DNA from: an uncultured Acidobacteriota bacterium
GTDB lineage: Bacteria > Acidobacteriota > Thermoanaerobaculia > Multivoradales > SZUA-115
Direction of reading: 5' to 3'
DNA length: 64,000 bases
NCBI GenBank assembly: GCA_963805975.1
Contig: CAWDVR010000003.1
Location: 832,001 to 896,000, forward strand
Positions 3,641 to 60,299 of this stretch are shown piece by piece; position 1 is the stretch's first letter, and every line of letters starts with the position of its first letter. The notes beneath the pieces are model-generated. The model was not told where the DNA came from. It did no database searches and was given only the letters and a program-made list of their open reading frames with translations. Position numbers and translations under genes: made by a program.

Positions 3641-3694
3641 GCGACCGATCCTACCCGCTACGGTCGCGCGCTCGTACGGTAAGCTCCCGCCGCC

Positions 3695-5431
3695 GTGCTC
3701 CGCGAGCTCCACGTCAAGAACATCGCCGTCGTCGCCGAGGCCACGGTCGAGCTGGGCCCGGGCCTGAACGCCCTGACCGGCGAGACCGGCGCCGGCAAGT
3801 CGATCGTCGTCGATTCGCTCGCGCTCCTGGCCGGCGCCCGCGCCTCGGCCGAGCTGGTGCGCACCGGCGCCGAGAGCCTGACCGTCACCGGCGTCTTCGT
3901 GCCCGCGGGGGAAGCCTGGCGCGGCGTGCTCGAGGAGGCGGGCCTCGAGGCCGAGGGCGGCGAGCTCCTGGTGCGGCGCGAGATCGCGCGGAGCGGCAGG
4001 AACCGCGTCTTCGTCAACGACCAGCCGGCCACGGCGCGGCTGCTCGCGGACCTGGCGCCGCTCCTGCTGCGCATCCACGGCCAGCGCGACGAGCTGGGCC
4101 TCGCGACCCCGGACCTGCAGCGCGAGTGGCTGGATCTCTCGGGTGGCGGCGCTGCCGCGGAGCTCACCGCGCGCGTTGCCGCGGCCTTCGACAAGCACGC
4201 CCGCCTGGCGGCGCGGCTCGAGCGCCTGACCGGCGACGAGCGGGCGCGGCGCGACCGGCTCGAGCTGCTGCGGCGGGAGGCCCGCGAGATCGACGCCGCG
4301 CACCTCGAAGCGGGCGAGGAGGAGGGGCTCCGCGTCGAGCGCGACGGCCTGCGCCACCGCGAGGCGATCCTCGCCGCGGCCAGCGGCGCTTTTTCCCTGC
4401 TGATCGACGACGAGGACGCCGCGGCGCCGCGCGTGGCCCGGGCCCAGGGCCTCCTGGGCGAGCTCGGGGAGCTGGTTCCCGCGGCCCGTGAATGGGCGGC
4501 GGCGCTCGACGGGGCCCGCATCCAGCTCGAAGAGGTCGGCCGCGAGCTCTCGGCGCGCCTCGACGATGCCGAGGCCGAGCCCGGCCGGCTCGACGCGGTC
4601 GAGGAACGGCTGGCCCTGGTCGAGCGGCTGGGCCGCCGCTTCGCCGGCGCCGGGGCGCCGCTCACCACGGGCCAGCTCCTCGCTCTGCGCCAGGAGCTGG
4701 CCAGCGAGGTGGAGGAGCTCTCGGGCGACGCCCTCGGGCAGGACGAGCTCGCGGCGCTGGCCGCCGAGGCCCTGGAGGAGTACCGGCGGGCGGCGCTCGA
4801 GCTGTCGGCCGCGCGCGCCGCCTGGGGCGAGGCCCTGGCCCGGCGCATCGAGGCCGAGCTCGTGGATCTCGGGCTCGCCAAGGCCCGGCTCGCAGTGCGC
4901 CTCGCGCGGCGCAAGAAGAACGACAGCCCGCTCGTCCTCGCCGGCGAGCCGGTGGAGGTCGGGCGCTCGGGGGTCGATCACGTGGTCTTCGAGCTCGCCG
5001 CCAACCCCGGCGAGGAGCTGGGCCCGCTCTCGCGCCTGGCCTCCGGCGGCGAGCTGGCGCGCATCTATCTCGCCTTGCAGCTCGCGGTCGGCGCGGGCGA
5101 GGGTGGGCCGGCGCCGACCCTGGTCTTCGACGAGGTGGACGTCGGCGTGGGCGGCGCGCAGGCGGCGGCCCTCGGCCGGAAGCTCCAGCGGCTGGGCGCC
5201 GGCGGCCAGATCCTGGTGGTCACGCACCTGGCGCAGGTGGCGAGCCACGCCGACCGCCACTACCGGGTGTCGAAGAAGGAGCGCGGCGGGCGGACCTTCA
5301 CGCAGGTGGCGCCGCTGTCGGAGAAGGAGAGAGTGGAGGAGACCGCCCGCATGCTCGCCGGCAGCCGCGTCACCGACCTCTCGCGCTCGCACGCGAGCGA
5401 GCTCCTGGCGGGCTCGGCGCGGCGGCGATGA
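3695..5431 (+). CDS. recN: DNA repair protein RecN
   Basis: MLRELHVKNIAVV, TGETGAGKS Walker A, RIHGQ, ASGGELAR signature, LVFDEVDVG, VTHLAQVA. Confidence 0.96.
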   Translation: MLRELHVKNIAVVAEATVELGPGLNALTGETGAGKSIVVDSLALLAGARASAELVRTGAESLTVTGVFVPAGEAWRGVLEEAGLEAEGGELLVRREIARSGRNRVFVNDQPATARLLADLAPLLLRIHGQRDELGLATPDLQREWLDLSGGGAAAELTARVAAAFDKHARLAARLERLTGDERARRDRLELLRREAREIDAAHLEAGEEEGLRVERDGLRHREAILAAASGAFSLLIDDEDAAAPRVARAQGLLGELGELVPAAREWAAALDGARIQLEEVGRELSARLDDAEAEPGRLDAVEERLALVERLGRRFAGAGAPLTTGQLLALRQELASEVEELSGDALGQDELAALAAEALEEYRRAALELSAARAAWGEALARRIEAELVDLGLAKARLAVRLARRKKNDSPLVLAGEPVEVGRSGVDHVVFELAANPGEELGPLSRLASGGELARIYLALQLAVGAGEGGPAPTLVFDEVDVGVGGAQAAALGRKLQRLGAGGQILVVTHLAQVASHADRHYRVSKKERGGRTFTQVAPLSEKERVEETARMLAGSRVTDLSRSHASELLAGSARRR

Positions 5432-6088: not shown

Positions 6089-8032
6089 ATGAGAGCTCGC
6101 CGCGCCCTGATCCTTCTCGCCTGCCTCGGCTTCTTCCTGCCCGGCCCGCCCTCGGCCGCGGCGCCTCCTTCGCCCGCACCTGCCACCACCATCTCGCCGG
6201 ACGAGGTGGAGCGCGGCCAGCGCGGCTACGGCCTGTCGGTCTTCGCCGGCACCGAGCCCGAGCGCTTCGAGGTCGAGGTGCTGGGGGTGATCCGCGGCCT
6301 CAACGCCGGGGTGAGCTACATCCTGGCCCGCCTGACCGGGCACGGCCTCGAAAGCGCGGGGGTGGTCGCGGGCATGAGCGGCAGCCCGGTCTACCTCGAC
6401 GGCAAGCTGGCCGGCGCCGTGGCTTTCGGCTGGGGCTTCTCCCGCGAGGCCATCGCCGGCATCACGCCGATCGCCGAGATGCGGCGGCTCTCCGCCGGCG
6501 GGGGAGAGCCGGCCGGAGCGCACCGTGCCGTGACCGGAGCGCCGTTCGGGGTCGAGACGCAGGCCCCTGACTTCGCGGTCGACTTCACGGCCCTCGCCTC
6601 GGGCCGCGTGCCGGCCGATCTCCTGGAGCGCGAGCTGGCGAAGCTCCGGCCGGTGTTGACCTCGGGTGCCACCTCCGCCGTGCAGTGGGCGGCGAGCGGC
6701 TTCGGCAGCGAGTCCGGCGGCATCCTGTCCCGCGCGCTGGGGCCCGTCACCATGGCCGGCAGGACCCGGGAGGCCCCCGGCGACCCCAGGCTCTCTTCGA
6801 CGATCCTCCAGCCCGGCCAGATGGTCGCCGCGGTGCTGGTCGACGGCGACCTCTCCCTCGCCGCCTCCGGCACCATCACCGACCGCACCGGCGACGAGCT
6901 GCTGGTCTTCGGGCACGCCTTCCTGGGCAGCGGCCCGGTGTCCTTCCCGCTCGCCACCGCCGAGGTCATCACCGTGGTCGACAACATGAACAGCTCGTTC
7001 AAGCTGTCGAACGTCGGCCCGGTGGTGGGCGCTTTCACCGAGGACCGGCGGGCCGGGCTCGCCGGCCGCATCGGCGCCGTGGCCCCCATGATCCCGCTCG
7101 CCATCCGCATCGAGGGCGAGAACCGCCGCGACTGCAACCTGCGGGTGGCCGAGGTGGACCGCTTCACCTCGGCGCTCCTCGCGAGCGGCGTCGTGGGCTG
7201 CCTCGAGGCCGCCTCCTGGCGCTCGGGGGACCAGGCCCTCGACCTCGAGGCCACCTTCCGGGTGCGCGGCCAGGGGCCGGTGACGGTGCGGCAGAGCTTC
7301 GACGGGCCGGTGGCGGGAACCGAGAGCGCCTCGTATCTCATGGCCACCGCCAGCTACCTGCTCGACAGCCAGCTCGAGGCCGGACGGCTGGATGGCGTCG
7401 AGGTCCGGTTGACGCAGAGCGCCACGGCCAGGAACGCCACCCTGGTGGCGGTCACCCCGGACCGCGCCGTGGTGCGCCCCGGCGACCGGGTGAAGCTGCA
7501 CCTCGACTTCACGGTCTTTCGCGGCGAGCCCTTCGAGCGCGACCTCGACTTCCTCCTGCCGCCCGACCTGCCGGCGGGCAAGGTGACGCTCCTGGTGGGC
7601 GACGGCGGCTCGATCGACGGCGCGCGCCAGACCCTCGAGCCGGTCGAGCCACGCACCTACCTCCAGGCCGTCGAGCTGCTCAAGTCCCTGCACTCGCGCC
7701 GCGAGCTGGCGGTGCTCGCCGTGCTGCCGGAGCGCGGGGTGGCGGTCGGTGGCCAGCCCATGCCGCGCCTGCCGGGCTCGGTTCGCACCCTGCTCAGCGC
7801 GGCGGCGCCCGGCGGCGCCACCCAGTTGCGCGCCGCCATCGCCGCCGAGAGCTACGAGAGTGTCGAGCGGCCGTTCACCGGCCTGCTGCGGTTGGACCTC
7901 ACCGTCGAGCGCCGCGAAGCCGCCCCAGAGCCGGGTGCCCCAAAGCCGGATGCCCCAAAGCCGGATGCCCCAGAGCCGGGCGCTCCGCCGGCCGCACCCG
8001 CCGGCGAGGCGCCGGGAAAGGCGCGCCCATGA
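6089..8032 (+). CDS. SpoIVB-like peptidase S55 domain secreted protein
   Basis: Signal peptide; GYGLSVFAG, GVVAGMSGSPVYLDGKLAGAVAFG, AGITPI and FGHAF motifs; Pro-rich tail. Confidence 0.85.
   Translation: MRARRALILLACLGFFLPGPPSAAAPPSPAPATTISPDEVERGQRGYGLSVFAGTEPERFEVEVLGVIRGLNAGVSYILARLTGHGLESAGVVAGMSGSPVYLDGKLAGAVAFGWGFSREAIAGITPIAEMRRLSAGGGEPAGAHRAVTGAPFGVETQAPDFAVDFTALASGRVPADLLERELAKLRPVLTSGATSAVQWAASGFGSESGGILSRALGPVTMAGRTREAPGDPRLSSTILQPGQMVAAVLVDGDLSLAASGTITDRTGDELLVFGHAFLGSGPVSFPLATAEVITVVDNMNSSFKLSNVGPVVGAFTEDRRAGLAGRIGAVAPMIPLAIRIEGENRRDCNLRVAEVDRFTSALLASGVVGCLEAASWRSGDQALDLEATFRVRGQGPVTVRQSFDGPVAGTESASYLMATASYLLDSQLEAGRLDGVEVRLTQSATARNATLVAVTPDRAVVRPGDRVKLHLDFTVFRGEPFERDLDFLLPPDLPAGKVTLLVGDGGSIDGARQTLEPVEPRTYLQAVELLKSLHSRRELAVLAVLPERGVAVGGQPMPRLPGSVRTLLSAAAPGGATQLRAAIAAESYESVERPFTGLLRLDLTVERREAAPEPGAPKPDAPKPDAPEPGAPPAAPAGEAPGKARP
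7925..7984 (+). repeat. 15-bp in-frame tandem repeat, about 4 copies (PEPGA/PKPDA/PKPDA/PEPGA)
   Basis: ccagagccgggtgcc ccaaagccggatgcc ccaaagccggatgcc ccagagccgggcgct. Confidence 0.75.
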
Positions 8033-10251
8033 AGAGAGTCGAGAAGCGAAGGCACACGGCGTGGCTCTGCCTGCTGCTCTGCGGGCTGGCCCCGGCCGCC
8101 TCCCTATCCGCGGCCGAGGTGCGGCACTTCCGGGCCGACGGCCGCGAGGAGCTCGCCGCGGGCGAGCTCGACGGCATCAGCCTCGACCCGCTGGGGCGGC
8201 TGGCGCTCGCCGACCGCGTGGAGCGGGTGGCCGGCGTGGAGGAGCCCTTCCTGCTGGCGGCGGCGCGCCATCCCAAGGGCTGGGTGGTGGGGACCGGCAA
8301 CGCCGGCAAGGTGGTGCTGGTCGACGCCCGAGGCAACGTCTCGACGCTCTTCACCACGGCGGAGACGCAGGTCTTCGCCGTCCACGCCGAGGCGGACGGC
8401 ACGGTCTTCGCCGGCACCTCGCCGCACGGTAAGGTCTACCGCATCACGCCGGACGGCAAGGGAGAGGTCTTCTTCGACCCCGGCGAGACCTACATCTGGG
8501 CTCTCGAGCGCTCCGGCGGCGGCGGCCTGCTGGTGGCGACCGGCACCCAGGGCAAGCTCTTCGAGGTCGACGCCGCCGGCCGGGGCAAGGTGCTCTACGA
8601 CGGCGACGACACCCACCTGCGCTCGCTCGCCGTGCTCCCCGGCGGCGACCTCCTCGCCGGCACCGCCGACGAGGGGCTGATCCTCCGCATCCAGCCGAAC
8701 GGTGCGGTGCGCACGCTCTACGACGCCGCGACCCCCGAGGTGGTGGCGCTCGCCGTGGGCGAGGGCGGCGAGGCCTGGGCGGCGGTGGTCAACTCCGAGG
8801 CCAGCCTGGCCGAGCCCGAGGCCGCGGCCGGAACGGAAGCCGGCGCCCGCCGCGCACCGGTCCGCGTCCGCGAGAGCGACGGCGAGCCCACGCCCGTGGT
8901 CACGGTCAGCGAAGGCGCCGAGGTGCCGGCCGAGCCGGTCCGGCCGCGCGGCGGCCGCGGACCGCGCACCGAGATCCTGAAGATCTCCCCCTCCGGCCTC
9001 ACCGAGACGGTGTGGACCTTCTTCGAGGAAACGGCGTTCTCCCTTCTCTGGCAACGGGGCAGGCTCTGGGTGGGCACCGGCCTCGAGGGCAAGCTCTTCG
9101 CCTACGACGGCGCCTCGATGGTGCTCGAAAAGGACGCTCCCGAGCGGCAGATCGTGGCCCTGATGGCCGGCGATCCCGCACAGAAAGAGGTGGGGCCGAC
9201 CTTCGCCACCACCAACGCCGCCGCCCTCTTCCGCTTCGCCGGCGGCTCGGAACGCCGTGGCACCTACACCAGCCAGGCGCTGGACGCCGGCTCGGTCGCC
9301 GCCTTCGGCACCCTCCACTGGGAGGGCACGCTGCCCAAGGGAGCGGTGCTCTCCTTCTCGGCGCGGAGCGGCCTCTCCGCCGCTCCCGACCGCACCTGGT
9401 CGGAGTGGACGGCGCCCTCCTCCGGGCCGGAGATCCCGCTCACGGCGCTGCCGCGGGGCCGCTTCGTGCAGTGGCGGGCCGAGCTCTCGGCGGGCAACGG
9501 TGCGTCGCCACAGCTCTACGCCGTGGATCTCTCCTACCGGCAGGAGAACCTGAAGCCCATCATCCGCTCGCTCTCCGCTCTCGAGCCCGGCCAGGTGCTG
9601 GTGCCGGCCGGCTTCAACCCCGGCAACCAGGTCTTCGAGCCCGCGCACCCGGCCCGCGACGGCATCTTCACGCCCCTGGGCGAGGCCTCGTCCGGCGACG
9701 AAGGGCGGCAGAAGACGCTGTGGAAGAAGGGCTACCAGACGCTGCGCTGGGAGGCGAGCGACCCCAACGCCGACCCGCTCCGCTACCGGCTCGAGATCGC
9801 TCCGGCGGCGACAGACGCGGGTTGGCTGCCGGTGGCGGACGACCTCGAGGCCACTCAATACGGCTTCGACGCCACGGTGCTGCCGGACGGCATCTACCGC
9901 TTCCGCCTCTCGGCCTCGGACGGCGAAGGCAACGGCGGTGAGGGCCTCACCTCGACGCAGGTCTCCGAGCCGGTGACCGTGGATCACACGCCTCCGGCGC
10001 TGGTCTCGGCCGAGAGGAAAGGCGGCAAGCTGGTGGTGTCCGCGCGCGATCAGACGAGCCCGCTCACCGAGGCCGTGGTGAGCGTCGACGCCGGCTCGTG
10101 GGCGCCGGCCCCGGCGGCGGACGGCCTCACCGACGGGCGCCGCGAGAGCTTCGAGATCCCCGTGCCGGAGAAGGCCCGGATCGTCCTCCTGCGGCTGACC
10201 GACGCCGCGTACAATGTCGTCACCTTCGACCTGACCGACAAGCTCCGCTAG
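8029..10251 (+). CDS. Secreted beta-propeller (WD40-like) protein with Ig/FN3-like C-terminal domains, partner of the S55 peptidase
   Basis: ATGA overlap with the upstream gene; signal peptide; repeated GT.P.GKVY/GTQGKLF blades; W.ASDPNAD.L.Y and DHTPP Ig-like motifs. Confidence 0.75.
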   Translation: MKRVEKRRHTAWLCLLLCGLAPAASLSAAEVRHFRADGREELAAGELDGISLDPLGRLALADRVERVAGVEEPFLLAAARHPKGWVVGTGNAGKVVLVDARGNVSTLFTTAETQVFAVHAEADGTVFAGTSPHGKVYRITPDGKGEVFFDPGETYIWALERSGGGGLLVATGTQGKLFEVDAAGRGKVLYDGDDTHLRSLAVLPGGDLLAGTADEGLILRIQPNGAVRTLYDAATPEVVALAVGEGGEAWAAVVNSEASLAEPEAAAGTEAGARRAPVRVRESDGEPTPVVTVSEGAEVPAEPVRPRGGRGPRTEILKISPSGLTETVWTFFEETAFSLLWQRGRLWVGTGLEGKLFAYDGASMVLEKDAPERQIVALMAGDPAQKEVGPTFATTNAAALFRFAGGSERRGTYTSQALDAGSVAAFGTLHWEGTLPKGAVLSFSARSGLSAAPDRTWSEWTAPSSGPEIPLTALPRGRFVQWRAELSAGNGASPQLYAVDLSYRQENLKPIIRSLSALEPGQVLVPAGFNPGNQVFEPAHPARDGIFTPLGEASSGDEGRQKTLWKKGYQTLRWEASDPNADPLRYRLEIAPAATDAGWLPVADDLEATQYGFDATVLPDGIYRFRLSASDGEGNGGEGLTSTQVSEPVTVDHTPPALVSAERKGGKLVVSARDQTSPLTEAVVSVDAGSWAPAPAADGLTDGRRESFEIPVPEKARIVLLRLTDAAYNVVTFDLTDKLR

Positions 10252-21379: not shown

Positions 21380-21426
21380 TCCCGGTGGCCCGCTGGTTTT
21401 TTCACCTTCCGCAGGAGGATCGTCGC

Positions 21427-24400
21427 ATGCGCCCGCGCCGTGCCCGGCTTGTCTTCGCCCTCGCCGTCTCGTTCGTCTCCCTGCTCTTCGTTCCCGGCCT
21501 CGAAGCCGCCCGCGCCAAGCCCAAGGAGGCGCCGGCCGAGGCCAAGCCCGTCGTGGACCCGGCCCTCTTCTCGAGCCTCGACTGGCGCGAGGTCGGGCCC
21601 TACCGGGGTGGCAGGTCGGCAGCGGTGACCGGGGTGCCGGGCCAGCCCAACCTCTACTACTTCGGCTCGACCGGCGGCGGGGTGTGGAAGACGACGGACG
21701 GCGGCAACACCTGGAAGTGCGTCTCGGACGGCTTCTTCGGCGGCTCGATCGGCGCCGTGGCGGTCTCCGAGTGGGACCCCAACGTGATCTACGCCGGCAC
21801 CGGCGAGAAGACGGTGCGCGGCAACGTCTCCTCGGGCGACGGGATGTGGAAGTCGACCGACGCCGGCAAGACCTGGAAGCACGCCGGCCTCGCCGACTCG
21901 CGGCACATCCCCCGCGTGCGCATCCACCCCCGGAACCCGGAGCTGGTCTACGCGGCGGTCCTCGGCCATCTCTTCGGCCCCAACGAGGAGCGCGGCGTCT
22001 ACCGCTCAGAGGACGGCGGCAAGAGCTGGCAGCGGGTGCTGTTCGTCAACCCCGAGGTCGGCGCGGTGGATCTCGCGATGGACCCCACCAACCCGCGCGA
22101 TCCTCTATGCCACCACCTGGCGCGTGAAGCGCACGCCGTGGAGCCTCGAGAGCGGCGGCCCGGGCTCCGGCATCTGGAAGACCACGGACGGCGGCGACAC
22201 CTGGAACGAGCTGACCGCCAGCCCCAACCCCTCCAGCCCCAACCCGTCCAGTACCGGCCTGCCCAAGGGCCCGCTCGGCATCATCGGCATCACGGTCTCG
22301 CCCACCAACCCGGAGAACCTCTACGCCATCATCGAGGCCGAGGAGGGCGGCGTCTTCCGCTCGCAGGACGCCGGCAAGACCTGGGAACGGACCAACCAGA
22401 GCCGCGACCTGCGCCAGCGCGCCTGGTACTACACCCGCATCTACGCCGATCCCGCGGACCAGGAGAGCGTCTACGTGGTGAACGTGCGCTTCCACCGCTC
22501 GAAGGACGGCGGCAAGACGTTCAGCGCCAGCCGCACCCCGCACGGCGACAACCACGACCTGTGGATCGCGCCCGAGAACCCGTTGCGCATGATCGAGTCG
22601 AACGACGGCGGCGCCAACGTCTCGACCGACGGCGGCCGGACCTGGACCACCCAGAGCAACCAGCCCACCTCGCAGATCTACCGCGTGTCGACCGACAACG
22701 CCTTCCCCTACCGCCTGCTGGGCGGCCAGCAGGACAACACCGCGCTGCGCATCCGCTCGCGCTCGGTCAACGGCGGCGGCATCGGCGAGCAGGACTGGGA
22801 GGTCACGGCCGGCGGCGAGAGCGGCTTCGTGGTCGCCAAGCCGGACGAGCCGGACGTGGTCTACGGCGGCTCCTACGGCGGCCTGCTGGAGCGCCGGGAC
22901 CACCGCACGGGCCAGTCGCGGATGGTCAACGTCTGGCCGGACGACCCGATGGGCGCCGGCGCCGCGGACTTGAAGTACCGCTTCCAGTGGAACTTCCCGA
23001 TCTTCTTCTCGCCCCACGACGCCGACACGCTCTACGCCGCGGCCAACGTGCTGTTCCGGAGCCGCGACGGCGGCGAGCACTGGGAAGCGGTCTCCGGCGA
23101 CCTGACCAGGAACGACAAGTCGAAGCAGGGACCCTCGGGCGGCCCGATCACCAAGGACAACACCAGCGTCGAGTACTACAGCACGATCTTCGCGGCGCTC
23201 GAGTCGCCCCACGAGCCGGACGTGCTGTGGGCGGGCTCGGACGACGGCCTGGTGCACGTGACGCGCGACGGCGGCAAGACCTGGAAGAACGTCACCCCGC
23301 CGGGCCTCCCCGAGTGGTCGATGGTCAACGCGCTCGACGCCGATCCGTTCGAGAAGGGCGGGCTCTATCTCGCGGCCACCCGCTACAAGCTCGACGACGA
23401 CACGCCCTATCTCTTCAAGACCACGGACTACGGCGCCACCTGGAAGCGGATCGACGGCGGCATCGACCGCGGGCACTTCACCCGCGTGGTGCGCGCCGAC
23501 CCGGGCCGCCGCGGCCTGCTCTACGCCGGCACCGAGCGCGGGATGTACGCCTCGTTCGACGACGGTGCGCACTGGCAGTCGTTGCAGCTCAACCTGCCGC
23601 GCGTGCCGGTGACCGACCTGGCGGTGAAGAACGGCGACCTCGTCGCCGCCACCCAGGGGCGCGGCTTCTGGATCCTCGACGACCTGGGCGTGCTGCACCA
23701 GGCGAAGCCCGAGCTCGCCGCGCAGCCGGCCCATCTCTACCCGCCGCGTCCGGCGGACCGCGCCTCGGGCTTCCGTATCGAGGAGCCGCGCGGCATGGGC
23801 AAGAACCCTCACTCCGGCGTGGTGTTTCACTACCTCCTGCCGCAAGAGCTGCCCAAGGACCAGAAGCTCCAGCTCGAGATCCTCGACGACCGCGGCGAGC
23901 TCATCCAGACCTTCACCCGGAAAGCCGAGCCCGGGAAAGAGGAAGAGAAGGAAGAGGGAGGAGCCTGGAGCTACTTCGAAGCGCCGGAGACCCGGATCCT
24001 CACCGTCAAGAAGGGCGGCAACCGCGTGGCCTGGGACCTTCTCCTGCCGCCTGCCGAGCGCTTCCCGGGCCTCATCCTGTGGAACGACGCGCTCGACGGC
24101 CCGACGGTCGGGGCCGGCCGGTACCAGGCTCGCCTGACGGTGGGGGAGTGGAGCTCGACGGTGCCGTTCGAGGTGGTGCCCGACCCGCGCTCCATGGCCA
24201 CCGCCGCCGAGCGCCAGGCGCAGTTCGAGTTCGTGCGCGGGATACGCGACAAGCTCTCCGAGGCCCACCGCGAGATCGCCCGCCTGCGCGAGGTGCGCGA
24301 CCAGATCGACGGCCTGAAGAAGCGCCTGGGCAAGGACGAGAAGGCCAAGGCGGTGATCGAGGCCGGAGACGCGCTCAAGGCCAAGCTGGCGGCGATCGAG

Positions 24401-24691
24401 GAGGTGCTCTACCAGACCAAGAACAAGAGCGCCCAGGACCCGCTCAACTACCCCGTGCGCCTGAACGACAAGCTGGCCGGTGTGCTGGCCCTGGCGGCGG
24501 CGAGCGACGGCGCGCCGACCGCCTCGATGGTCGCCGTGCGCCAAGAGCTGACGGCGGCGATCGACGCCGAGCTCGCCAAGCTGGCGGCGATCTGGAAGGA
24601 CGACCTGGCCGCGTTCAACCGTCTGGCCCGGGAGTCCGAGGTGCCGGCCCTGGCGTTGCCGCCGGAGAAGAAGCCGGCGAGCAGCCCGTAG
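21427..24691 (+). pseudogene. Vps10/sortilin-like BNR-repeat glycosyl hydrolase, frameshifted at about 22099 (true pseudogene or sequencing error)
   Basis: WREVGPYRGGRS and repeated KTTDGG.TW Asp-boxes; removing one G at 22099 restores DPTNPRILYATTWRVKRTPW and joins the two ORFs. Confidence 0.85.
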
Positions 24692-32621: not shown

Positions 32622-34661
32622 GTGCCGCCTCGTTCCGCCGCCTCGCTCCGCGTGCTCGACAACTGCTCCCCGCCTGGCGCCAAGAAGGGGCCCCCGAAGA
32701 TGGGGGAGTCGCGCATGGGGAAATGGCGTGCGGCGGCACTCCTTGCCGTCCACGCCGTCATCGCGCTCCACATCGCCCACTGGCTGACCGCCGGCTCGAC
32801 CGTCACCCCGGTCGAGCCTTCCGAGGCCATGGCCTTCGGCAAGGCCGGCGTGGTCAACGCCGGCCTGATCTTCTTCGCCGCCGTCATCCTGCTGACCGCC
32901 GTCTTCGGCCGCTTTTTCTGCGGCTGGGCCTGTCACCTGGTGGCGCTGCAGGACTTCTGCGGCTGGCTGATGAGCAAGATGGGCATCCGGCCGCGTCCGC
33001 TGCGCTCGCGGCTGCTGCGCGTGGTGCCGGCGCTCGCTTTCTTCTACATGTTCCTGTGGCCGGCCGCCTACCGGCTGTGGATCGGCGACTCCTTTCGCAT
33101 CACCGCGTTCGAGTACACCACCAGTCACTTCTGGTCCACTTTTCCCGGCTGGGTGATCGGCGGCCTGACCTTCCTCACCTGCGGTTTCGCCTGCGTCTAC
33201 TTCCTGGGCGCCAAGGGCTTCTGCACCTATGCCTGCCCCTACGGCGCGATCTTCGCCGCCGCCGACAAGGTGGCGCCGCTGCGCATCCGGGTCACCGACG
33301 CCTGTGTGGGCTGCGGCCATTGCTCCTCGGTCTGCACCTCGAACGTGCGGGTGGCGGAGGAGGTGCGGGACTTCAAGATGGTGGTCGACAGCGGCTGCAT
33401 GAAGTGCCAGGACTGCATCAACGTCTGCCCCACGAACGCCCTCTACCTGGGCTTCGGCGCACCGTCGCTCTTCGCCCGCCCGCGGGTCGAGGCCCGCACG
33501 CCGCGCCGCCCGGTCCTCTCCTGGGGCGAGGAAGCGATCCTCGGCGTGGGCTTCCTCACCGCTTTCGCCACCTTCCGGGGCCTCTATGGCATGGTGCCTT
33601 TCCTGATGGCCCTGGGGCTCGCGGGCGTGCTCGCCTACGTGGTGCTCACCACGGTCCGGCTCGTTCGACAGCGCGACGTCCAGCGCCAGGGCCTGGCGCT
33701 CAAGAGCGAGGGCAAGCTGCTGCCGGCGGGCCGGGGCTTCGTCGCGGTGGCGCTCCTCATCGCCGTCTTCTGGGCCCACAGCGCGGCGGTACGGGCGCAG
33801 AGCTTTCTCGGCGAGCGCTCCTACGCCGGCACCGCCGCTCTGCGCCAGCGGGCACTGGACCCCGCCGCGGCGCCGGGCGGCCTGACCGCGGCCGACAGTG
33901 CGCTGGTGGGCGAAGCCCTCGGCCGCTTCGAGCGCGTCCGCTCTTGGGGTCTGTTCGATACCTACGGCGCCGCGTCGAAGCTCTCCTGGCTGTATTTCCT
34001 CGCCGGCTCCTCCGAGCGCGCCGCGGACTACGCGCGGCAGGCGCTGGAGCAGGAGGAGGCGCCCGCCGAGATGCACCAGCTCCTGGCCCGGGCCGCGCTC
34101 GCGCGCGGTGATCTCCCGGTGGCTATTTCCTCGTATGAACAAGCGATTGCCGCCCAGCCGGGCGCGCCGCAGCCCTATATGGCGCTCGGCATGGCGCTCG
34201 CCGGCCGCGGCGAGCTCGCCGCCGCCGGCGCGGTGTTCGACCGCGGGCGCAGAGCGGTGCCGGGTGCGGTGGACTTGGTCTACAATGCAGGACTCGTACG
34301 AGCTCTGCAAGGCCAGACCGACGCGGCGATCACGCTCTTTCAACAAGCCCTGATGGTCAATCCCCGCTATCTCCCGGCGAGAGAGAACCTCGCCGGCGTG
34401 CTGGCCTCCGCCGGCCGCTACGAGGAGAGCGTGGCCCAGTACCGTGCCGCCCTCGAGCAGGCCGGCAACGACTCCGAGACCCGGTTCCTCCTCGCCCGCG
34501 CCCTCGTCGAGCTGGGCCGGCGGCAGGAAGCCGAGGCCGAGCTCCGGCGCGCGCTGGCGATCGACCCCGGCAACGAGAACGCGCAAACCTTGCTCGCAGA
34601 GCTCCACGCCACCGGCGGCGAGCCGCGAGACAACGCCCTATCGCAGGACGGAGCCCAATGA
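32622..34661 (+). CDS. Membrane 4Fe-4S polyferredoxin (NapH/MauN/CcoG-like) fused to C-terminal TPR repeats
   Basis: FGRFFCGWACH and FCTYACPYG CX3C motifs; CVGCGHCSSVC and CMKCQDCINVCP clusters; multiple TMs; TPR helices; start could be 32700 or 32715. Confidence 0.85.
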   Translation: MPPRSAASLRVLDNCSPPGAKKGPPKMGESRMGKWRAAALLAVHAVIALHIAHWLTAGSTVTPVEPSEAMAFGKAGVVNAGLIFFAAVILLTAVFGRFFCGWACHLVALQDFCGWLMSKMGIRPRPLRSRLLRVVPALAFFYMFLWPAAYRLWIGDSFRITAFEYTTSHFWSTFPGWVIGGLTFLTCGFACVYFLGAKGFCTYACPYGAIFAAADKVAPLRIRVTDACVGCGHCSSVCTSNVRVAEEVRDFKMVVDSGCMKCQDCINVCPTNALYLGFGAPSLFARPRVEARTPRRPVLSWGEEAILGVGFLTAFATFRGLYGMVPFLMALGLAGVLAYVVLTTVRLVRQRDVQRQGLALKSEGKLLPAGRGFVAVALLIAVFWAHSAAVRAQSFLGERSYAGTAALRQRALDPAAAPGGLTAADSALVGEALGRFERVRSWGLFDTYGAASKLSWLYFLAGSSERAADYARQALEQEEAPAEMHQLLARAALARGDLPVAISSYEQAIAAQPGAPQPYMALGMALAGRGELAAAGAVFDRGRRAVPGAVDLVYNAGLVRALQGQTDAAITLFQQALMVNPRYLPARENLAGVLASAGRYEESVAQYRAALEQAGNDSETRFLLARALVELGRRQEAEAELRRALAIDPGNENAQTLLAELHATGGEPRDNALSQDGAQ

Positions 34662-35962
34662 TGAACGAGAACCAGAGTATCGATGCCCGGCGCCGCAAGC
34701 GGATCCTCGTCGCCTGTGCGGCGGTCGCGGTGATGGTAGCCGCCACGGCGAGCCTCACGGTCGGGGCCGGCTCCACCGGGCCTGATGTCACCGTGTTCAG
34801 CCTCCCCGCCGCCTTCAACTGGGGATCGAGCGGCGGAGTTCGCGGCTACTCGATCGGCACCACCTCGTGCAACATCGGCGATGCGCCCCTCAACTGGTGC
34901 GACAACGGCGGCGGCTGCGGCGCGGGCACCACGGACGAGGACCATCCCGCCATCGCGCAGAACCTCTACCGGCTGAAGGATGGCCGTTTCGAGCAGCTCG
35001 GCATGAGCTGGCTGAAGCACGGCTTCGTCTCCCTCAACACCAGCTCCGCTGGCTGCGGCGACGGGAGCTGCGACCCTCCGCCGCTCGGCGGCAACCAGCT
35101 CGGCGTGGGCTGCACCGATCCCTATGGCTCGAGCAAGAATGGCGGCCGTCCGCTCGGCCGGCGCTCGGAGGTCAACGCCACGACCGGCGAGTTCCCCTTC
35201 CCCTACGGCACGGGAGGTACTGAGAGCGCGCCTGGCGATCAGCGGGTAAAGGTCCTCGAATCGGAGCTCGACCCGGCGCTCAACGCCGGCGCGCGGTACT
35301 TCCTCGAGGGCCAGTACGTGGCCCCGGACGACGCGGCGGCCGGCAACGGCCTCAACAATGCCTCCTACCGCGAGGTGAGCGTGCAGGCCGGCAGCTTCAA
35401 TCTCAGCAACGTGGGCAGCACCGTGCGCGAGGTGCCGGCGATCGCGGTATGGCCGGTGATCGACCCCACGGTCGAGCTGGTCAACGCGGACACCGCCACC
35501 ACGCCTGTCGAGCGCTTCCACGTGGCGCGGAAGGTGACCACCCCCTCGCCCGGCACCTGGCACTACGAGTATGCGATCCACAACATGAACTCGGACCAGG
35601 GGGCGCGCTCCTTCACCATCACCTTCCCCGGCGCGACCACGATCACCAACGTCGGCTTCCGCGACGTGGACCATCACTCCGGCGAGCCCTACGCGACCAC
35701 GAACTGGGTATCGACCGTGGGAGCCAACGGTGTCTCCTGGGCGACCGACGACTTCGCCACCAACGCCAATGCCAACGCGCTGCGCTGGGCGACGCTGTTC
35801 AGCTTCTGGTTCGACGCCAACGCGGGGCCGGGCAGCGTCTCGCACGCGCTCGGACTGTTCAAGAGCGGCGGCACGCTGGCGGTCTCCTTCCCGTTGCAGT
35901 CGGTCTTCGACGACGGCTTCGAGACCGGTGACACCAGCGCCTGGACCCTGATCGTTCCGTAA
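34658..35962 (+). CDS. Secreted hypothetical protein, paralog 1 (WLKHGF motif; C-terminal VFDDGFETG tail)
   Basis: ATGA overlap with the upstream gene; N-terminal signal; 6 Cys in the mature N-half; strong GC3 coding bias. Confidence 0.85.
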   Translation: MMNENQSIDARRRKRILVACAAVAVMVAATASLTVGAGSTGPDVTVFSLPAAFNWGSSGGVRGYSIGTTSCNIGDAPLNWCDNGGGCGAGTTDEDHPAIAQNLYRLKDGRFEQLGMSWLKHGFVSLNTSSAGCGDGSCDPPPLGGNQLGVGCTDPYGSSKNGGRPLGRRSEVNATTGEFPFPYGTGGTESAPGDQRVKVLESELDPALNAGARYFLEGQYVAPDDAAAGNGLNNASYREVSVQAGSFNLSNVGSTVREVPAIAVWPVIDPTVELVNADTATTPVERFHVARKVTTPSPGTWHYEYAIHNMNSDQGARSFTITFPGATTITNVGFRDVDHHSGEPYATTNWVSTVGANGVSWATDDFATNANANALRWATLFSFWFDANAGPGSVSHALGLFKSGGTLAVSFPLQSVFDDGFETGDTSAWTLIVP

Positions 35963-35976
35963 AGGGGGACGAGGAA

Positions 35977-37281
35977 ATGAGACCGCTCTCGCACCTGCTG
36001 CGCCGGCCCGCGTTCGTCTCCGTGCTCGGGCTCCTGGTGGCCGGTGCGGCCGCGGTCTCGATCCTCCCGGCCACGGCCGGTACGACAGGCCCGGACGTCA
36101 CGGTCTTCACCCTTTCCGGGACCACCAACTACGGGTCGAGCGCCGGGGTGCGCGGCTACTCGATCGGCACCGTCTCCTGCAACCAGGGCGATGCCCCCCT
36201 CAACTGGTGTGACAACACGGGCGGCTGCGGGCAGGGCACCAAGGCCGAGGACCACCCGGTCATCGCCCAGAACCTCTACCGGTTGAAAGGTGGGCGCTTC
36301 GAGCAGATCGGCATGAGCTGGCTGAAGCACGGCTTCACCTCGCTCAACCAGAGCGCGAGCGGCTGCGGCAGCGGCGGCTGCACCGGGCCGCCGCTCGGTG
36401 GCAACCAGCTCGGCGTGGGCTGCACCGATCCCTATGGCTCCAGCCTGAACGGCAGCCGGCCCCTGGGCAAGCGCTCCGAGGTCAACGCCACCACCGGCGT
36501 CTTTCCCTTCCCGTACGGGGGCGGCGGCAGCAGCCAGTCCCAGCCCGCCGACCAGCGGGTACGGGTGCTGGAGTCGGAGCTCGACCCGGCGCTCAACACG
36601 GGCGCGCGCTACTTCCTCGAAGGCCAGTACGTGGCCCCGGACGATGCCGCGGCCGGCAACGGCCTGAACAACGCCTCCTACCGCGAGGTGAGCGTCGAGG
36701 CCGGCACCTTCAACCTCGGCTTCGTGGGCAACACGGTCCGCGAGCAGTCGGCGATCGAGGCCTGGGCGGCGATCGATCCGGGCGTCGAGCGGCTGAACGT
36801 CGACCGCGCGGGGAGCATCCTCCAGCGCTTCGAAGTGGCGCGCAAGGTGACGCACCCCTCGCCCGGCACCTGGCACTACGAGTACGCGATCCACAACTTG
36901 AACTCGGACCACTCGGCGCGCGCTTTCGCCCTGAGCTTCCCGGCGCCCACCGCCGTCACCAACGTGGGCTTCCGGGACGTGGACCACCACTCGGGCGAGC
37001 CCTACGCGGGGACGGATTGGGCCTCGACGGCGGGAGCGCAGGGCGTCACCTGGGCGAGCGAAGACTTCGCCACCAATGCCAACGCCAACGCCTTGCGCTG
37101 GGGCACGATGTTCAGCTTCTGGTTCGACGCCGGCACGGGCCCGAGCGGCATCCAGCACACCCTCGAGCTCTTCAAGCCGGCGGGCGGAGCGCCGCTGCCC
37201 TTCGCCTTCGCGACCGACATCTTCGCCGACGGTTTCGAGACCGGCAACACCAGCGCCTGGACCGAGACGATCCACAAGTAA
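35977..37281 (+). CDS. Secreted hypothetical protein, paralog 2 (WLKHGF motif; C-terminal IFADGFETG tail)
   Basis: GAGG RBS; long blocks identical to paralog 1; both 434 aa. Confidence 0.85.
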   Translation: MRPLSHLLRRPAFVSVLGLLVAGAAAVSILPATAGTTGPDVTVFTLSGTTNYGSSAGVRGYSIGTVSCNQGDAPLNWCDNTGGCGQGTKAEDHPVIAQNLYRLKGGRFEQIGMSWLKHGFTSLNQSASGCGSGGCTGPPLGGNQLGVGCTDPYGSSLNGSRPLGKRSEVNATTGVFPFPYGGGGSSQSQPADQRVRVLESELDPALNTGARYFLEGQYVAPDDAAAGNGLNNASYREVSVEAGTFNLGFVGNTVREQSAIEAWAAIDPGVERLNVDRAGSILQRFEVARKVTHPSPGTWHYEYAIHNLNSDHSARAFALSFPAPTAVTNVGFRDVDHHSGEPYAGTDWASTAGAQGVTWASEDFATNANANALRWGTMFSFWFDAGTGPSGIQHTLELFKPAGGAPLPFAFATDIFADGFETGNTSAWTETIHK

Positions 37282-37288
37282 CGTGCCC

Positions 37289-37309
37289 CCCGCCGCTTTG
37301 GGCGGCGGG
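37289..37309 (+). terminator. GC-rich hairpin after the paralog pair
   Basis: cccgccgc-tttgg-gcggcggg; no U-tract. Confidence 0.35.
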
Positions 37310-37317
37310 ATCGCCAA

Positions 37318-38256
37318 ATGGGCGAGCCCAACCCCGAGCTCCTCGTCCTCGCCGCCGGCCTGGGCTCGCGCTATGGCGGCCTGAAGCAGCTCGAGCCCCT
37401 GGGGCCGGGGGGCGAGGTGCTGATGGACTACGGCGTCTTCGACGCGGCACGGGCCGGCGTCGAGCGCGTGGTCTTCGTGCTGCGCCGCGAGATGGAGCGC
37501 GAGTTCCACCAGCGCCTCGGCCGGCGCTATGCGCGCCGGCTCGAGGTGGCCTACGCGTTCCAGGAGATCGACGACCTGCCGCCGGGGTCCGCCGTGCCCG
37601 CGGCGCGCACCAAGCCCTGGGGCACGGCACACGCGGTGCTGTCCGCGGAGCAGGCCCTGCGGGCGCCCTTCCTGGTCGCCAACGCCGACGACTTCTACGG
37701 TGCCGAGGGTTTCCGCCTGTTGGTGCAGTTCCTGCGCCGGGGGAGTGGAGGAGGGGCGGGCGAGGGGGCACTGCGCTTCGCCATGGTGGGCTTCGAGCTG
37801 CGGCGCACCCTTTCCGAGCACGGGCCGGTGTCGCGCGGGGTCTGCGAGGTGACCGCCGAGGGGTTGCTCGCCTCCGTGGTCGAGCACACGGCGCTCGAGC
37901 CCTGGGGCGATGGTGCCCGCGAGGCGACCGCCGGCGGCGGCTGGCGCACCTTCACCGGCCGCGAGCCGGTGTCGCTCAACCTCTGGGGCCTCACTCCCGG
38001 CATCTTCCCGGAGCTCAGCGAGCGCTTCGAGCGCTTTCTGGCGGCGCGCTCCGCCGACCCCAAGGCCGAGCTCTACCTGCCGGCGGTGGTCGACGAGCTG
38101 ATCCGTGAGCGGCGGTCCACCGTGACCGTGCTGCCGTCGTCGGCACAGTGGTTCGGGGTCACCTACCGCGAGGACCGCGAGCGCGTGGCGCGGCACCTCG
38201 CCGCTCTGGTCGAAGCGGGGGAGTACCCGGCTCCGCTCTGGGACGGAGCGGCGTGA
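37318..38256 (+). CDS. Sugar-phosphate nucleotidyltransferase
   Basis: LAAGLGSRYGGLKQ, KPWGTAHA, NADDFYG, WFGVTY. Confidence 0.9.
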   Translation: MGEPNPELLVLAAGLGSRYGGLKQLEPLGPGGEVLMDYGVFDAARAGVERVVFVLRREMEREFHQRLGRRYARRLEVAYAFQEIDDLPPGSAVPAARTKPWGTAHAVLSAEQALRAPFLVANADDFYGAEGFRLLVQFLRRGSGGGAGEGALRFAMVGFELRRTLSEHGPVSRGVCEVTAEGLLASVVEHTALEPWGDGAREATAGGGWRTFTGREPVSLNLWGLTPGIFPELSERFERFLAARSADPKAELYLPAVVDELIRERRSTVTVLPSSAQWFGVTYREDRERVARHLAALVEAGEYPAPLWDGAA

Positions 38257-39356
38257 TCGCGCGTCCTCTCGCGACCGTGGGGGCAGGCTTCGAGCTCGAA
38301 GGCCGCTTCGTCCATGCCACGCCCCACGGCAGCGGCCATATGAACGAGACCTACGCGGTGACCCTGGAGCAAGGCGGGGCGCGCTGCCGCTACGTTCTGC
38401 AGCGCCTCAACAGCCACGTCTTCACCGACCCGCAAGCCATGATGGCCAACGTCGAGCGGGTGACGCGGCACCTCTCGGCGCAGCTCGAAGCCGAGGGCGT
38501 GCCGGACGTCGACCGGCGAGTGCTCAGCTGGGTCCCGGCGCGTGGCGGCGGCCTCCTCTTCCGTGATCCGGAGGGCGCCGCGTGGCGTGCCTGCCGCTTC
38601 GTCGAGGGGGCCCGCTCGGTCGACGTGCCGGAATCTCCACGCCAGGCCTACGAGGCGGCGCGTGCCTTCGGCCTCTTCCAGCTCCGTCTGCTGGAGCTGC
38701 CGGCGGCGAGCCTCGGGGTGACGCTCCCCGGCTTCCACCACACCGTCGAGCGCCTGGGCCACTTCCGCGCCGTGCTGGCCGCGGACCCCGCCGGGCGCGC
38801 CGCCTCCTGCGGCCCCGAGATCGAGCTCGCCCTGTCGCGCGAGGAGCTGGCCGCGAGCCTCCTCGACCTGGCCGCCGCCGGCGCCATGCCCTGGCGCGTC
38901 ACCCACAACGACTGCAAGGTGAACAACGTGCTGCTCGACGACGCCACCGGTGAGGGCCTGTGCGTCGTCGACCTCGACACCGTGATGCCGGGGCTCGCGC
39001 TCTGGGACTTCGGCGATCTGGTGCGCACCGCCACCTGCCGGGCCGCCGAGGACGAGCGCGCTCTCGGCCGGGTGGAGGTGGAGCCGGAGCTGTTCGCGGC
39101 CGTGGCCCGCGGCTACCTCTCGGCCATGGGGCCGTACCTCACCGCCGCCGAGCGGGATCACTTGGTGACGGCGGGCCAGCTCATCACTTTCGAGACCGGC
39201 CTGCGGTTCCTGACCGATCATCTGGATGGCGACCGCTACTTCCGCATCCACCGGCCGGGCCACAATCTGGACCGTTGCCGCAGCCAGTTCGCGCTGCTCG
39301 CCTCGCTCGAACGGCGCGAGGCGGAGCTCTCGCGGCTGGCCGCGGGCCCGTTCTGA
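38253..39356 (+). CDS. APH-family sugar kinase (N-acetylhexosamine 1-kinase-like)
   Basis: GSGHMNETY, YVLQRLN, RVTHNDCKVNNVL, VDLDTVMPG, DFGD, RFLTDHLDGD.YF; GTGA overlap. Confidence 0.88.
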   Translation: MIARPLATVGAGFELEGRFVHATPHGSGHMNETYAVTLEQGGARCRYVLQRLNSHVFTDPQAMMANVERVTRHLSAQLEAEGVPDVDRRVLSWVPARGGGLLFRDPEGAAWRACRFVEGARSVDVPESPRQAYEAARAFGLFQLRLLELPAASLGVTLPGFHHTVERLGHFRAVLAADPAGRAASCGPEIELALSREELAASLLDLAAAGAMPWRVTHNDCKVNNVLLDDATGEGLCVVDLDTVMPGLALWDFGDLVRTATCRAAEDERALGRVEVEPELFAAVARGYLSAMGPYLTAAERDHLVTAGQLITFETGLRFLTDHLDGDRYFRIHRPGHNLDRCRSQFALLASLERREAELSRLAAGPF

Positions 39357-59783: not shown

Positions 59784-60299
59784 ATGGCGCAGTTCACGGT
59801 CAACGCGACCCGATTCGATCCGTACAAGAACTTCAAGTTCCGCGTCAAGTGGGATGGCCGCTACGTCGCCGGGATCAGCAAGGTCGGTGCGCTCAAGCGC
59901 TCGACCGAGGTGGTGGAGCACCGTGAGGGTGGCGACCCCTCGACCAGCCGCAAGTCGCCCGGCCGCACCAAGTACGAGGCGATCACCCTCGAGCGCGGCG
60001 TGACCCACGACCTCGAGTTCGAGAACTGGGCGAACAAGGTGTGGAACTTCGAGGGCGGGGCGGGCCTCGAGTCCTCGCTCGCCGACTTCCGCAAGGACGT
60101 CATCATCGACGTCTTCAACGAGGCGGGGCAGAAGGCGATCTCCTACAAGGTCTACCGCTGCTGGGTGTCGGAGTTCCAGGCCCTGCCGGACCTCGACGCC
60201 AACGCCAACGCTGTCGCCATCCAGACGCTCAAGCTCGAGAACGAGGGTTGGGAGCGCGACGCGGACACTCCGGAGCCGGCGGAGCCGACCTTCCCCTAG
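59784..60299 (+). CDS. Tail tube protein (T4 gp19-like, eCIS)
   Basis: DPYKNFKFRV, EHREGGD, KSPGRTKYEAITLERG, LDANANAVAIQTLKL.NEG. Confidence 0.95.
   Translation: MAQFTVNATRFDPYKNFKFRVKWDGRYVAGISKVGALKRSTEVVEHREGGDPSTSRKSPGRTKYEAITLERGVTHDLEFENWANKVWNFEGGAGLESSLADFRKDVIIDVFNEAGQKAISYKVYRCWVSEFQALPDLDANANAVAIQTLKLENEGWERDADTPEPAEPTFP

Follow-up and report, generated by a model that had tools for sequence, protein, structure and literature searches.

Lysyl oxidase (LOX) is a copper enzyme that cross-links collagen, and LodA and GoxA are cysteine tryptophylquinone (CTQ) enzymes that have LodB and GoxB as accessory partners. In LOX, the formation of lysine tyrosylquinone (LTQ), a Lys-Tyr quinone, is self-catalysed with copper and O2 (PMC11951088, PMC6452851), and an archaeal LOX refolds with copper alone (PMC6452851). 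In PMC11951088, LTQ is classed as autocatalytic and confined to LOX, and no structure of mature LTQ exists. A second pertinent group comprises the membrane polyferredoxins NapH/MauN, NosR, PceC/RdhC and CcoG (PF12801). NapH-like proteins are described as modular relays to reductases or from oxidases that tie varied extracytosolic enzymes to the membrane pool, and the reactions of most of these transmembrane relays are still obscure (PMC8238504). The first Cys motif of NapH and of NosR is required for function (PMC5928378, PMC8238504). Here we examine a locus in which a NapH-like membrane polyferredoxin with tetratricopeptide repeats (TPRs), the partner, is encoded directly upstream of two secreted paralogs, the clients, whose first domain is predicted to adopt a LOX fold. 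The locus lies in a 64,000-nucleotide stretch (the window) of contig CAWDVR010000003.1 from an uncultured Acidobacteriota bacterium. Our reading, which we hold as possible rather than probable, is that the clients are exported copper/Lys-Tyr quinone enzymes that rely on electrons from the partner to form their cofactor or to be activated.

The features of the locus are as follows.

32622..34661, plus strand: polyferredoxin-TPR gene, with about seven predicted transmembrane helices, the motifs CGWxCH and CTYxCP, two cytoplasmic 4Fe-4S motifs and C-terminal TPRs
34658..35962, plus strand: secreted paralog 1 (P0002, 434 amino acids), with a signal peptide, a predicted LOX-fold domain, an immunoglobulin (Ig)-like domain and a DGFE tail
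34772..35467, plus strand: predicted LOX-fold domain of paralog 1 (residues 39-270), with D43, H96, K120, H121, D154, Y156 and N230/N233/N234
34943, 35015, 35018, 35117 and 35123, plus strand: codons of the key residues H96, K120, H121, D154 and Y156 of paralog 1, respectively
35468..35899, plus strand: second domain of paralog 1 (residues 271-414), an Ig-like beta-sandwich, with the codon of H340 (close family only) at 35675
35900..35959, plus strand: FxDGFETG C-terminal tail of paralog 1, a general tag in this genome, with low model confidence
35977..37281, plus strand: secreted paralog 2 (P0003, 434 amino acids), with the architecture of paralog 1 and H93, K117, H118, Y153 and H338 kept

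The original prediction, made from the DNA letters and their open reading frames (ORFs), had described three ORFs, an ATGA overlap between the polyferredoxin-TPR gene and paralog 1, a 14-bp spacer between the paralogs, a CGWACH motif, two 4Fe-4S motifs and a TPR tail, together with 434-residue paralogs that carry six Cys, His-bearing blocks and an FxDGFETG tail. All of these are present in the sequence; the six Cys of each paralog lie past its signal peptide, and the second Cys motif of the polyferredoxin-TPR protein reads CTYACP. The paralogs are approximately 70% identical as proteins and 79% identical as DNA. The polyferredoxin-TPR product has 679 amino acids if GTG 32622 is the start and 653 if it is ATG 32700, from which its residues are numbered here; ATG 32715 is a third candidate.

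By sequence, the paralogs gave no useful match in Pfam, NCBIfam or the PDB, where one search returned antibody light-chain noise, and a search of the ESM Atlas returned unnamed clusters only. A likeness to LOX was first suspected from motifs and then put to the test by structure searches. The AlphaFold model of whole paralog 1 has two domains (predicted local distance difference test score 88.5), and domain 1 folded alone scored 93. In a structure search with the whole model, LOXL2 was matched by residues 34-270 and Ig-like folds by residues 271-414. When domain 1 was used alone, LOXL2 (5ZE3) was the sole entry with E<=0.001 among 350,542 chains searched with Foldseek (E 2.7e-5, probability 1.00, template modelling (TM) score 0.41), and the sole chain with Z>=8 among 48,161 in a VIA structure comparison (Z 9.8, root-mean-square deviation 4.4 Å, 173 aligned residues). 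The latter match spans residues 2-232 of the domain-1 model on LOXL2 546-763, and the next best match has a Z of 7.6 over 113 residues. The runners-up are beta-galactosidase domains, which are named relatives of the LOX core (PMC5899467). Domain 1 is very probably homologous to LOX. The earlier proposal of an exported metalloprotein client is strongly supported, although the predicted LOX fold with its Lys/Tyr pair had been missed; the paralogs indeed match no characterised family by sequence, but by predicted fold they resemble one.

Residues of LOXL2 are numbered according to PMC5899467, mapped onto the LOXL2 chain, and equivalents were assigned by spacing; conservation was counted in 272 non-redundant homologs (<80% identity). 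The 36 residues between K120 and Y156 equal the distance from K653 to Y689 of LOXL2. K120 and Y156 are each present in 267 of the homologs, and the same five lose both while keeping both His. Such joint loss, never of one residue singly and with the His retained, is as expected for a cross-linked pair. H96 is present in 269 homologs and H121 in 270 (three lose H96, two lose H121, one of them both), and H96, K120, H121 and Y156 occur together in 263. D154 and N161 are invariant. Among distant members, with identities down to 25-30%, H96, K120, H121, D154, Y156 and three Cys are found in 25 of 25. C152, four residues before the Tyr, corresponds by spacing to LOXL2 C685, and C81/C87 are restricted to a close clade. 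With the fold and these residues considered together, it is somewhat more likely than not that the clients form a Lys-Tyr quinone. The five homologs without Lys and Tyr (P0244, P0255, P0338, P0344 and P0355) constitute natural cofactor-less controls; a quick tree built from 87 of the 272 rows puts them at two separate positions, which makes a single origin less likely without formally excluding it.

The region Y214-N234 matches LOXL2 Y708-N728 without gaps, so that N230, N233 and N234 fall on D724, N727 and N728. D43 and V44 stand at the spacing of the calcium ligands D549 and L550, and the position of E722 is Ala. The candidate ligands are well kept in homologs (D43 in 267/270, N230 in 255/271, N233 in 268/272 and N234 in 264/272), and by this spacing they mark a candidate calcium site like that of LOX.

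The clients resemble LOX (PF01186; human LOXL2, 5ZE3; haloarchaeal HTU-LOX) in their predicted whole-domain fold, in the LTQ-like spacing of Lys and Tyr, in a Cys four positions ahead of the Tyr, in a candidate calcium site and in being secreted. They differ in that the HxHxH copper row is cut to one His and a new invariant His directly follows the Lys, in an insertion of about 40 residues past the Tyr, in a second, Ig-like domain, and in matching no PF01186 model. They are moreover tied to a membrane polyferredoxin, whereas LOX has no known need of one. By profile and His row the paralogs lie outside PF01186, yet they are probably LOX-like in their working.

The original prediction emphasized four His-bearing blocks. 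H96 and H121 are conserved, as is H340 in the close family, but two of the four blocks and the tail fall outside the functional core. Counts for other His are H340 263/268, H302 193/271, H308 113/270 and H339 88/269. H340 was considered as a universal third metal ligand and rejected, since it is absent from 25 of 25 distant members. In an unvalidated coevolution analysis of 459 sequences, a method whose scope stops short of metal contacts, the H340 loop is paired with strand 112-120 and with loop 168-170. If the predicted hairpin 98-107/110-121 is in register, H96 and H121 would be cross-strand neighbours.

The family to which the paralogs belong is large and unnamed, with 2635 matches among 7993 scored candidates and 3180 clusters at 50% identity. 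No published account of it was found in literature that excluded subscription journals and supplements (including the prokaryotic LOX lists of PMC4448552). The strict Tat motif was found in none of 117 close and none of 140 representative sequences, and Sec export is assumed on that basis. Many clients carry appended domains (PKD, FG-GAP, fn3 and galactose-binding-like). Among 40 scanned members (of 150 representatives), four are fused to cytochrome c domains and two to GSDH-type domains, and CxxCH occurs outside the core in 14 of the 150. Such cytochrome c fusions support redox work but are silent on the direction of the electrons. P0277, P0296, P0264, P0283 and P0293 bear one to four CxxCH-bearing cytochrome c domains, and P0267 and P0269 each have a fused GSDH-type propeller. 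A tail of the FxDGFETG type precedes a stop codon 39 times in this genome, and many linked clients are without one; on these grounds the tail was rejected as a private docking code.

The partner has six transmembrane helices by hydropathy scan and a seventh, at residues 278-294, by eye. Like the NapH group, it has a four-helix module, two Cys motifs, two 4Fe-4S motifs (which follow the membrane module) and an extracytosolic client. However, its first Cys motif is always CxxxCH (103/103 and 105/105 orthologues), the first helix is His-rich and conserved, and three extra helices and TPRs are present; no FMN-binding domain was found, and no known reductase or oxidase serves as the client. The second motif is CX3CP in 103/103 orthologues, and C205 is Ser in 15 of 103. 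Scores fall well short of the NapH cut-offs (67.7 versus 213 bits for TIGR02163 and 62.3 versus 234 bits for PRK09477), and the CcoG model does not appear among the best 25 of the 74 families matched by the partner. The statement that no nap, mau, nos or cco genes are nearby holds true, as no such model scored above cut-off in scans of 46 window ORFs; napG/napA and mau genes are likewise missing among the scanned window ORFs and recurrent neighbours.

H79 (in the first Cys motif), H24, E39, E42 and M117 of the partner are invariant, and H18, H27 and M44 are nearly so. Several of these His, Glu and Met residues are placed on the periplasmic side by prediction, where they could act as metal ligands or pass electrons to a metal. 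The TPRs would also be on the periplasmic side. The evidence does not establish them as the docking site that was proposed: across Acidobacteriota and Gammaproteobacteria the TPR part shares 35-57% identity, and its length varies widely among orthologues, whereas the membrane/ferredoxin part is approximately 70% identical. A second, more divergent partner copy (45-54% identity) is present in G302, G304, G312, G333, G354, G381, G384, G409, G504 and G550.

Homologs of the paralogs commonly co-occur with the ferredoxin-TPR gene, and the original prediction of a dedicated module is strongly supported. In 66 GTDB loci, which are the best matches and biased to close relatives (Thermoanaerobaculia, Lysobacterales and a few Planctomycetota), the gene is present in 49 and absent from six that extend 3 kb or more to either side, while 11 are too short to score. 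Among 66 metagenome loci, it is present in 38 and absent from three, with 25 too short. Fusions of ferredoxin and client were not seen in 19 loci checked. Of 552 genomes searched, 55 have a partner orthologue, and every one of them also has the family; no orthologue was found in the 481 searched genomes that are without a full family match. These co-occurrence counts include kin, which are not independent, and carry no P value.

In an even sample of 301 Acidobacteriota genomes, 22 have family matches (18 strong, three distant and one tail-only), and the orthologue occurs in exactly the 18 strong carriers. Partner and client are adjacent in 17 of these 18 (13 on fetched DNA, the window itself, and three from coordinates). 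A second sample consisted of 251 genomes from the phylum of locus L061 (Planctomycetota), with a centre genome picked as a carrier and orthologues taken at >=45% identity. The family is present in 50 of these and the orthologue in 37, all of which have the family; 13 family genomes (two close, 11 distant) are without the orthologue, and eight genomes have only a ferredoxin of 29-35% identity and no family. Nine of 10 genomes with a partner-less locus have a partner elsewhere. The clients very probably depend functionally on the partner.

A third member, in the same genome on another contig (G000:C1:956223-957305; L001 7867-9618, minus strand), is 47% identical to the paralogs. It keeps all key residues, its C-terminal domain is different, and no ferredoxin is found within about 8 kb; it is likely a client served in trans. 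Beside partner-less members no alternative redox partner recurs among the 50 of 74 neighbour ORFs scanned. One distant partner-less member, in locus L158, is flanked by a gene like those for type II copper monooxygenases on one side and a TPR gene on the other (7323-9389, 2833-4671).

The reading we favour can be set out as five steps. After Sec export, disulfides would form, as suggested by the signal peptides and conserved Cys. A metal, likely copper, would then be held by H96 and H121, facing each other across the predicted beta-hairpin beside Y156. Y156 would be oxidised and cross-linked to K120, yielding an LTQ-type cofactor, a step suggested by fold, spacing and joint loss. The NapH-like partner would carry electrons, drawn from quinol or from its own 4Fe-4S clusters in the cytoplasm, across to the periplasmic face; because the three-His row of LOX is gone, the cofactor step is likely not self-sufficient and the partner would be needed. 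Outside the cell, the mature enzyme may finally oxidise primary amines or the lysines of proteins, with its target set by the variable appended domains.

Several points weigh against this reading. The paralogs have no PF01186 match (Pfam, E<=0.1), nor has any protein across their own genome. Profile-profile comparisons (hhalign) with bacterial PF01186 proteins give probabilities of only 2%, 0.9%, 10% and 4%, and the first is aligned in a different register, although the last three, unforced, bring K120 and Y156 into register with the lysine and tyrosine of LTQ, respectively, and reversed and domain-2 controls are weaker (E 0.088, 0.33 and 0.3 versus 0.0031 and 0.0096). The deviation and TM score of the LOXL2 match represent modest structural agreement, and the equivalence of Lys, Tyr and His rests on spacing because the fold tools give no residue pairs. 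The HxHxH copper row, invariant in 8/8 bacterial LOX controls and part of the His core found conserved in a survey of prokaryotic LOX (PMC4448552), is absent. Only H96 is there, equivalent to LOXL2 H628 or H630, while positions 92, 94 and 98 are not His and the other two copper His are gone. A two-His site is nevertheless not implausible, because in a modelled inhibitor-bound LOXL2 copper is held by two His only, and mobility has been proposed for the stretch that surrounds the lysine (PMC9659206).

Moreover, no universal third metal ligand was found among the homologs. A His near 195 occurs in only 16 of 25 distant members. It is present in 11/13 partner-less loci versus 4/9 loci from partner genomes, groups that consist of kin, and its replacement of H340 in partner-less members is suggestive but not clean. 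Across lineages, neither a copper chaperone nor any other third gene is conserved nearby. No partner orthologue was found in 16 of 71 family genomes, 14 of them with distant members, so the partner is not required by all members. Since LTQ formation is self-catalysed in LOX, a need for outside electrons would be a departure, and the cytochrome c fusions fit an electron relay during turnover as well as they fit maturation.

The clients could instead be Lys-Tyr quinone amine dehydrogenases of LOX fold, with the partner relaying turnover electrons to the membrane quinone pool in place of O2, which we regard as rather unlikely. The fold and residue evidence applies equally to such enzymes, loss of the three-His row could abolish reactivity with O2, the cytochrome c and GSDH-type fusions are in keeping with them, and NapH-like proteins are found beside extracytosolic alcohol oxidases (PMC8238504). 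However, many Planctomycetota genomes have four to six family matches, six being the most that the scoring could register, and only one to three partner genes, and the dispersal of up to six or more clients per genome fits a shared maturation factor. The appended domains or general C-terminal tag also suggest that many clients are exported to where an inner-membrane protein could not reach them. Action in maturation, and not in turnover, is on balance slightly favoured.

It is unlikely that the clients are quinone-free metal enzymes of LOX fold, for example two-His copper monooxygenases or metal handlers primed by the partner, in which Lys and Tyr are catalytic or second-shell residues. Two invariant His accompanied by invariant D154 and N161 would suit such proteins. 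Domain 2 (residues 271-414), for which there is no Pfam match, is structurally closest to two YcnI/DUF1775 proteins, 3ESM (Z 10.0) and the copper-binding YcnI (7ME6, Z 9.5). These values are only about one Z above unrelated Ig folds (8.9), and domain 2 is internal in the clients, not N-terminal as in YcnI/DUF1775. CcoG, a relative of the partner by architecture, is a cupric reductase (PMC8267372). Against quinone-free chemistry, Lys and Tyr are lost jointly, never one alone, with both His remaining.

Foldseek searches with the whole protein gave weak matches to tandem-sandwich adhesins, integrins and arrestins, which together with the tandem copies, many appended surface domains and weak similarity to LOX profiles would suit surface or adhesion modules with no enzymatic role. 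In that case the resemblance to LOX would come from a common beta-sandwich or be a relic, and the partner would tend disulfides or a structural cross-link. This is very unlikely, as LOXL2 stands well above other sandwiches across the whole domain, His, Lys, Asp and Tyr are invariant in even the most distant members, and a strictly co-occurring iron-sulfur protein is unexpected for a passive adhesin. That the genes are linked through inherited synteny, without any tie in function, is scarcely credible and already largely refuted: close relatives dominate the locus sets, but three gene orders (two ferredoxin first, four client first and seven divergent in the 13 checked) occur, three phyla are represented, the partner is present in trans when not adjacent, and no orthologue was found in the 481 genomes searched that lack a full family match.

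If the favoured reading of partner-assisted cofactor formation is correct, the clients would join TTQ (tryptophan tryptophylquinone) enzymes, with MauG (PMC11951088), and CTQ enzymes in combining a protein-derived quinone with a dedicated accessory redox protein, although those enzymes have another fold and Trp-based, not Lys-Tyr, quinones. A partner for LTQ would be new, given its listing as autocatalytic. It is close to, yet short of, probable that the family is a large second branch of the LOX superfamily, in which the Lys-Tyr quinone is built or recycled on a two-His copper site with electrons from a dedicated inner-membrane polyferredoxin. Such proteins would be the first LTQ enzymes to depend on a partner, and with them Acidobacteriota, Planctomycetota and some Gammaproteobacteria would oxidise extracellular amines or cross-link them. 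Thousands of proteins from bacteria that combine a predicted LOX fold, Lys and Tyr, and a rebuilt metal site would offer small, expressible models for cofactor formation and the origin of LOX, and the strictly linked NapH-like protein, if our reading is true, adds a new class of client to these relays.

In one lineage of Thermoanaerobaculia, the module is bordered by genes resembling those for glycogen synthesis (L020, L031, L034, L038, L043, L046, L049, L054, L057, L065, L105 and L112), which is probably inherited synteny. In the window, a G+C-rich hairpin with an 8-bp stem and no T run (37289-37309) directly follows the stop codon of paralog 2, where the module may end. Farther downstream (37318-39356), the same strand encodes a nucleotidyltransferase and an APH-family kinase, which resemble a MurU/AmgK-type pair and do not recur as neighbours. 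A P1B-ATPase fragment lies at 8-952, 32 kb from the module. A glycosyl-hydrolase-like beta-propeller gene (21385-24691) is apparently split by a frameshift near 22100, with its start in the ORF at 21385 and the remainder in the ORF at 22124, and, amid unannotated neighbours, a gene resembling those for phage tail tubes and contractile injection systems (TIGR02241, above cut-off) occupies 59784-60296.

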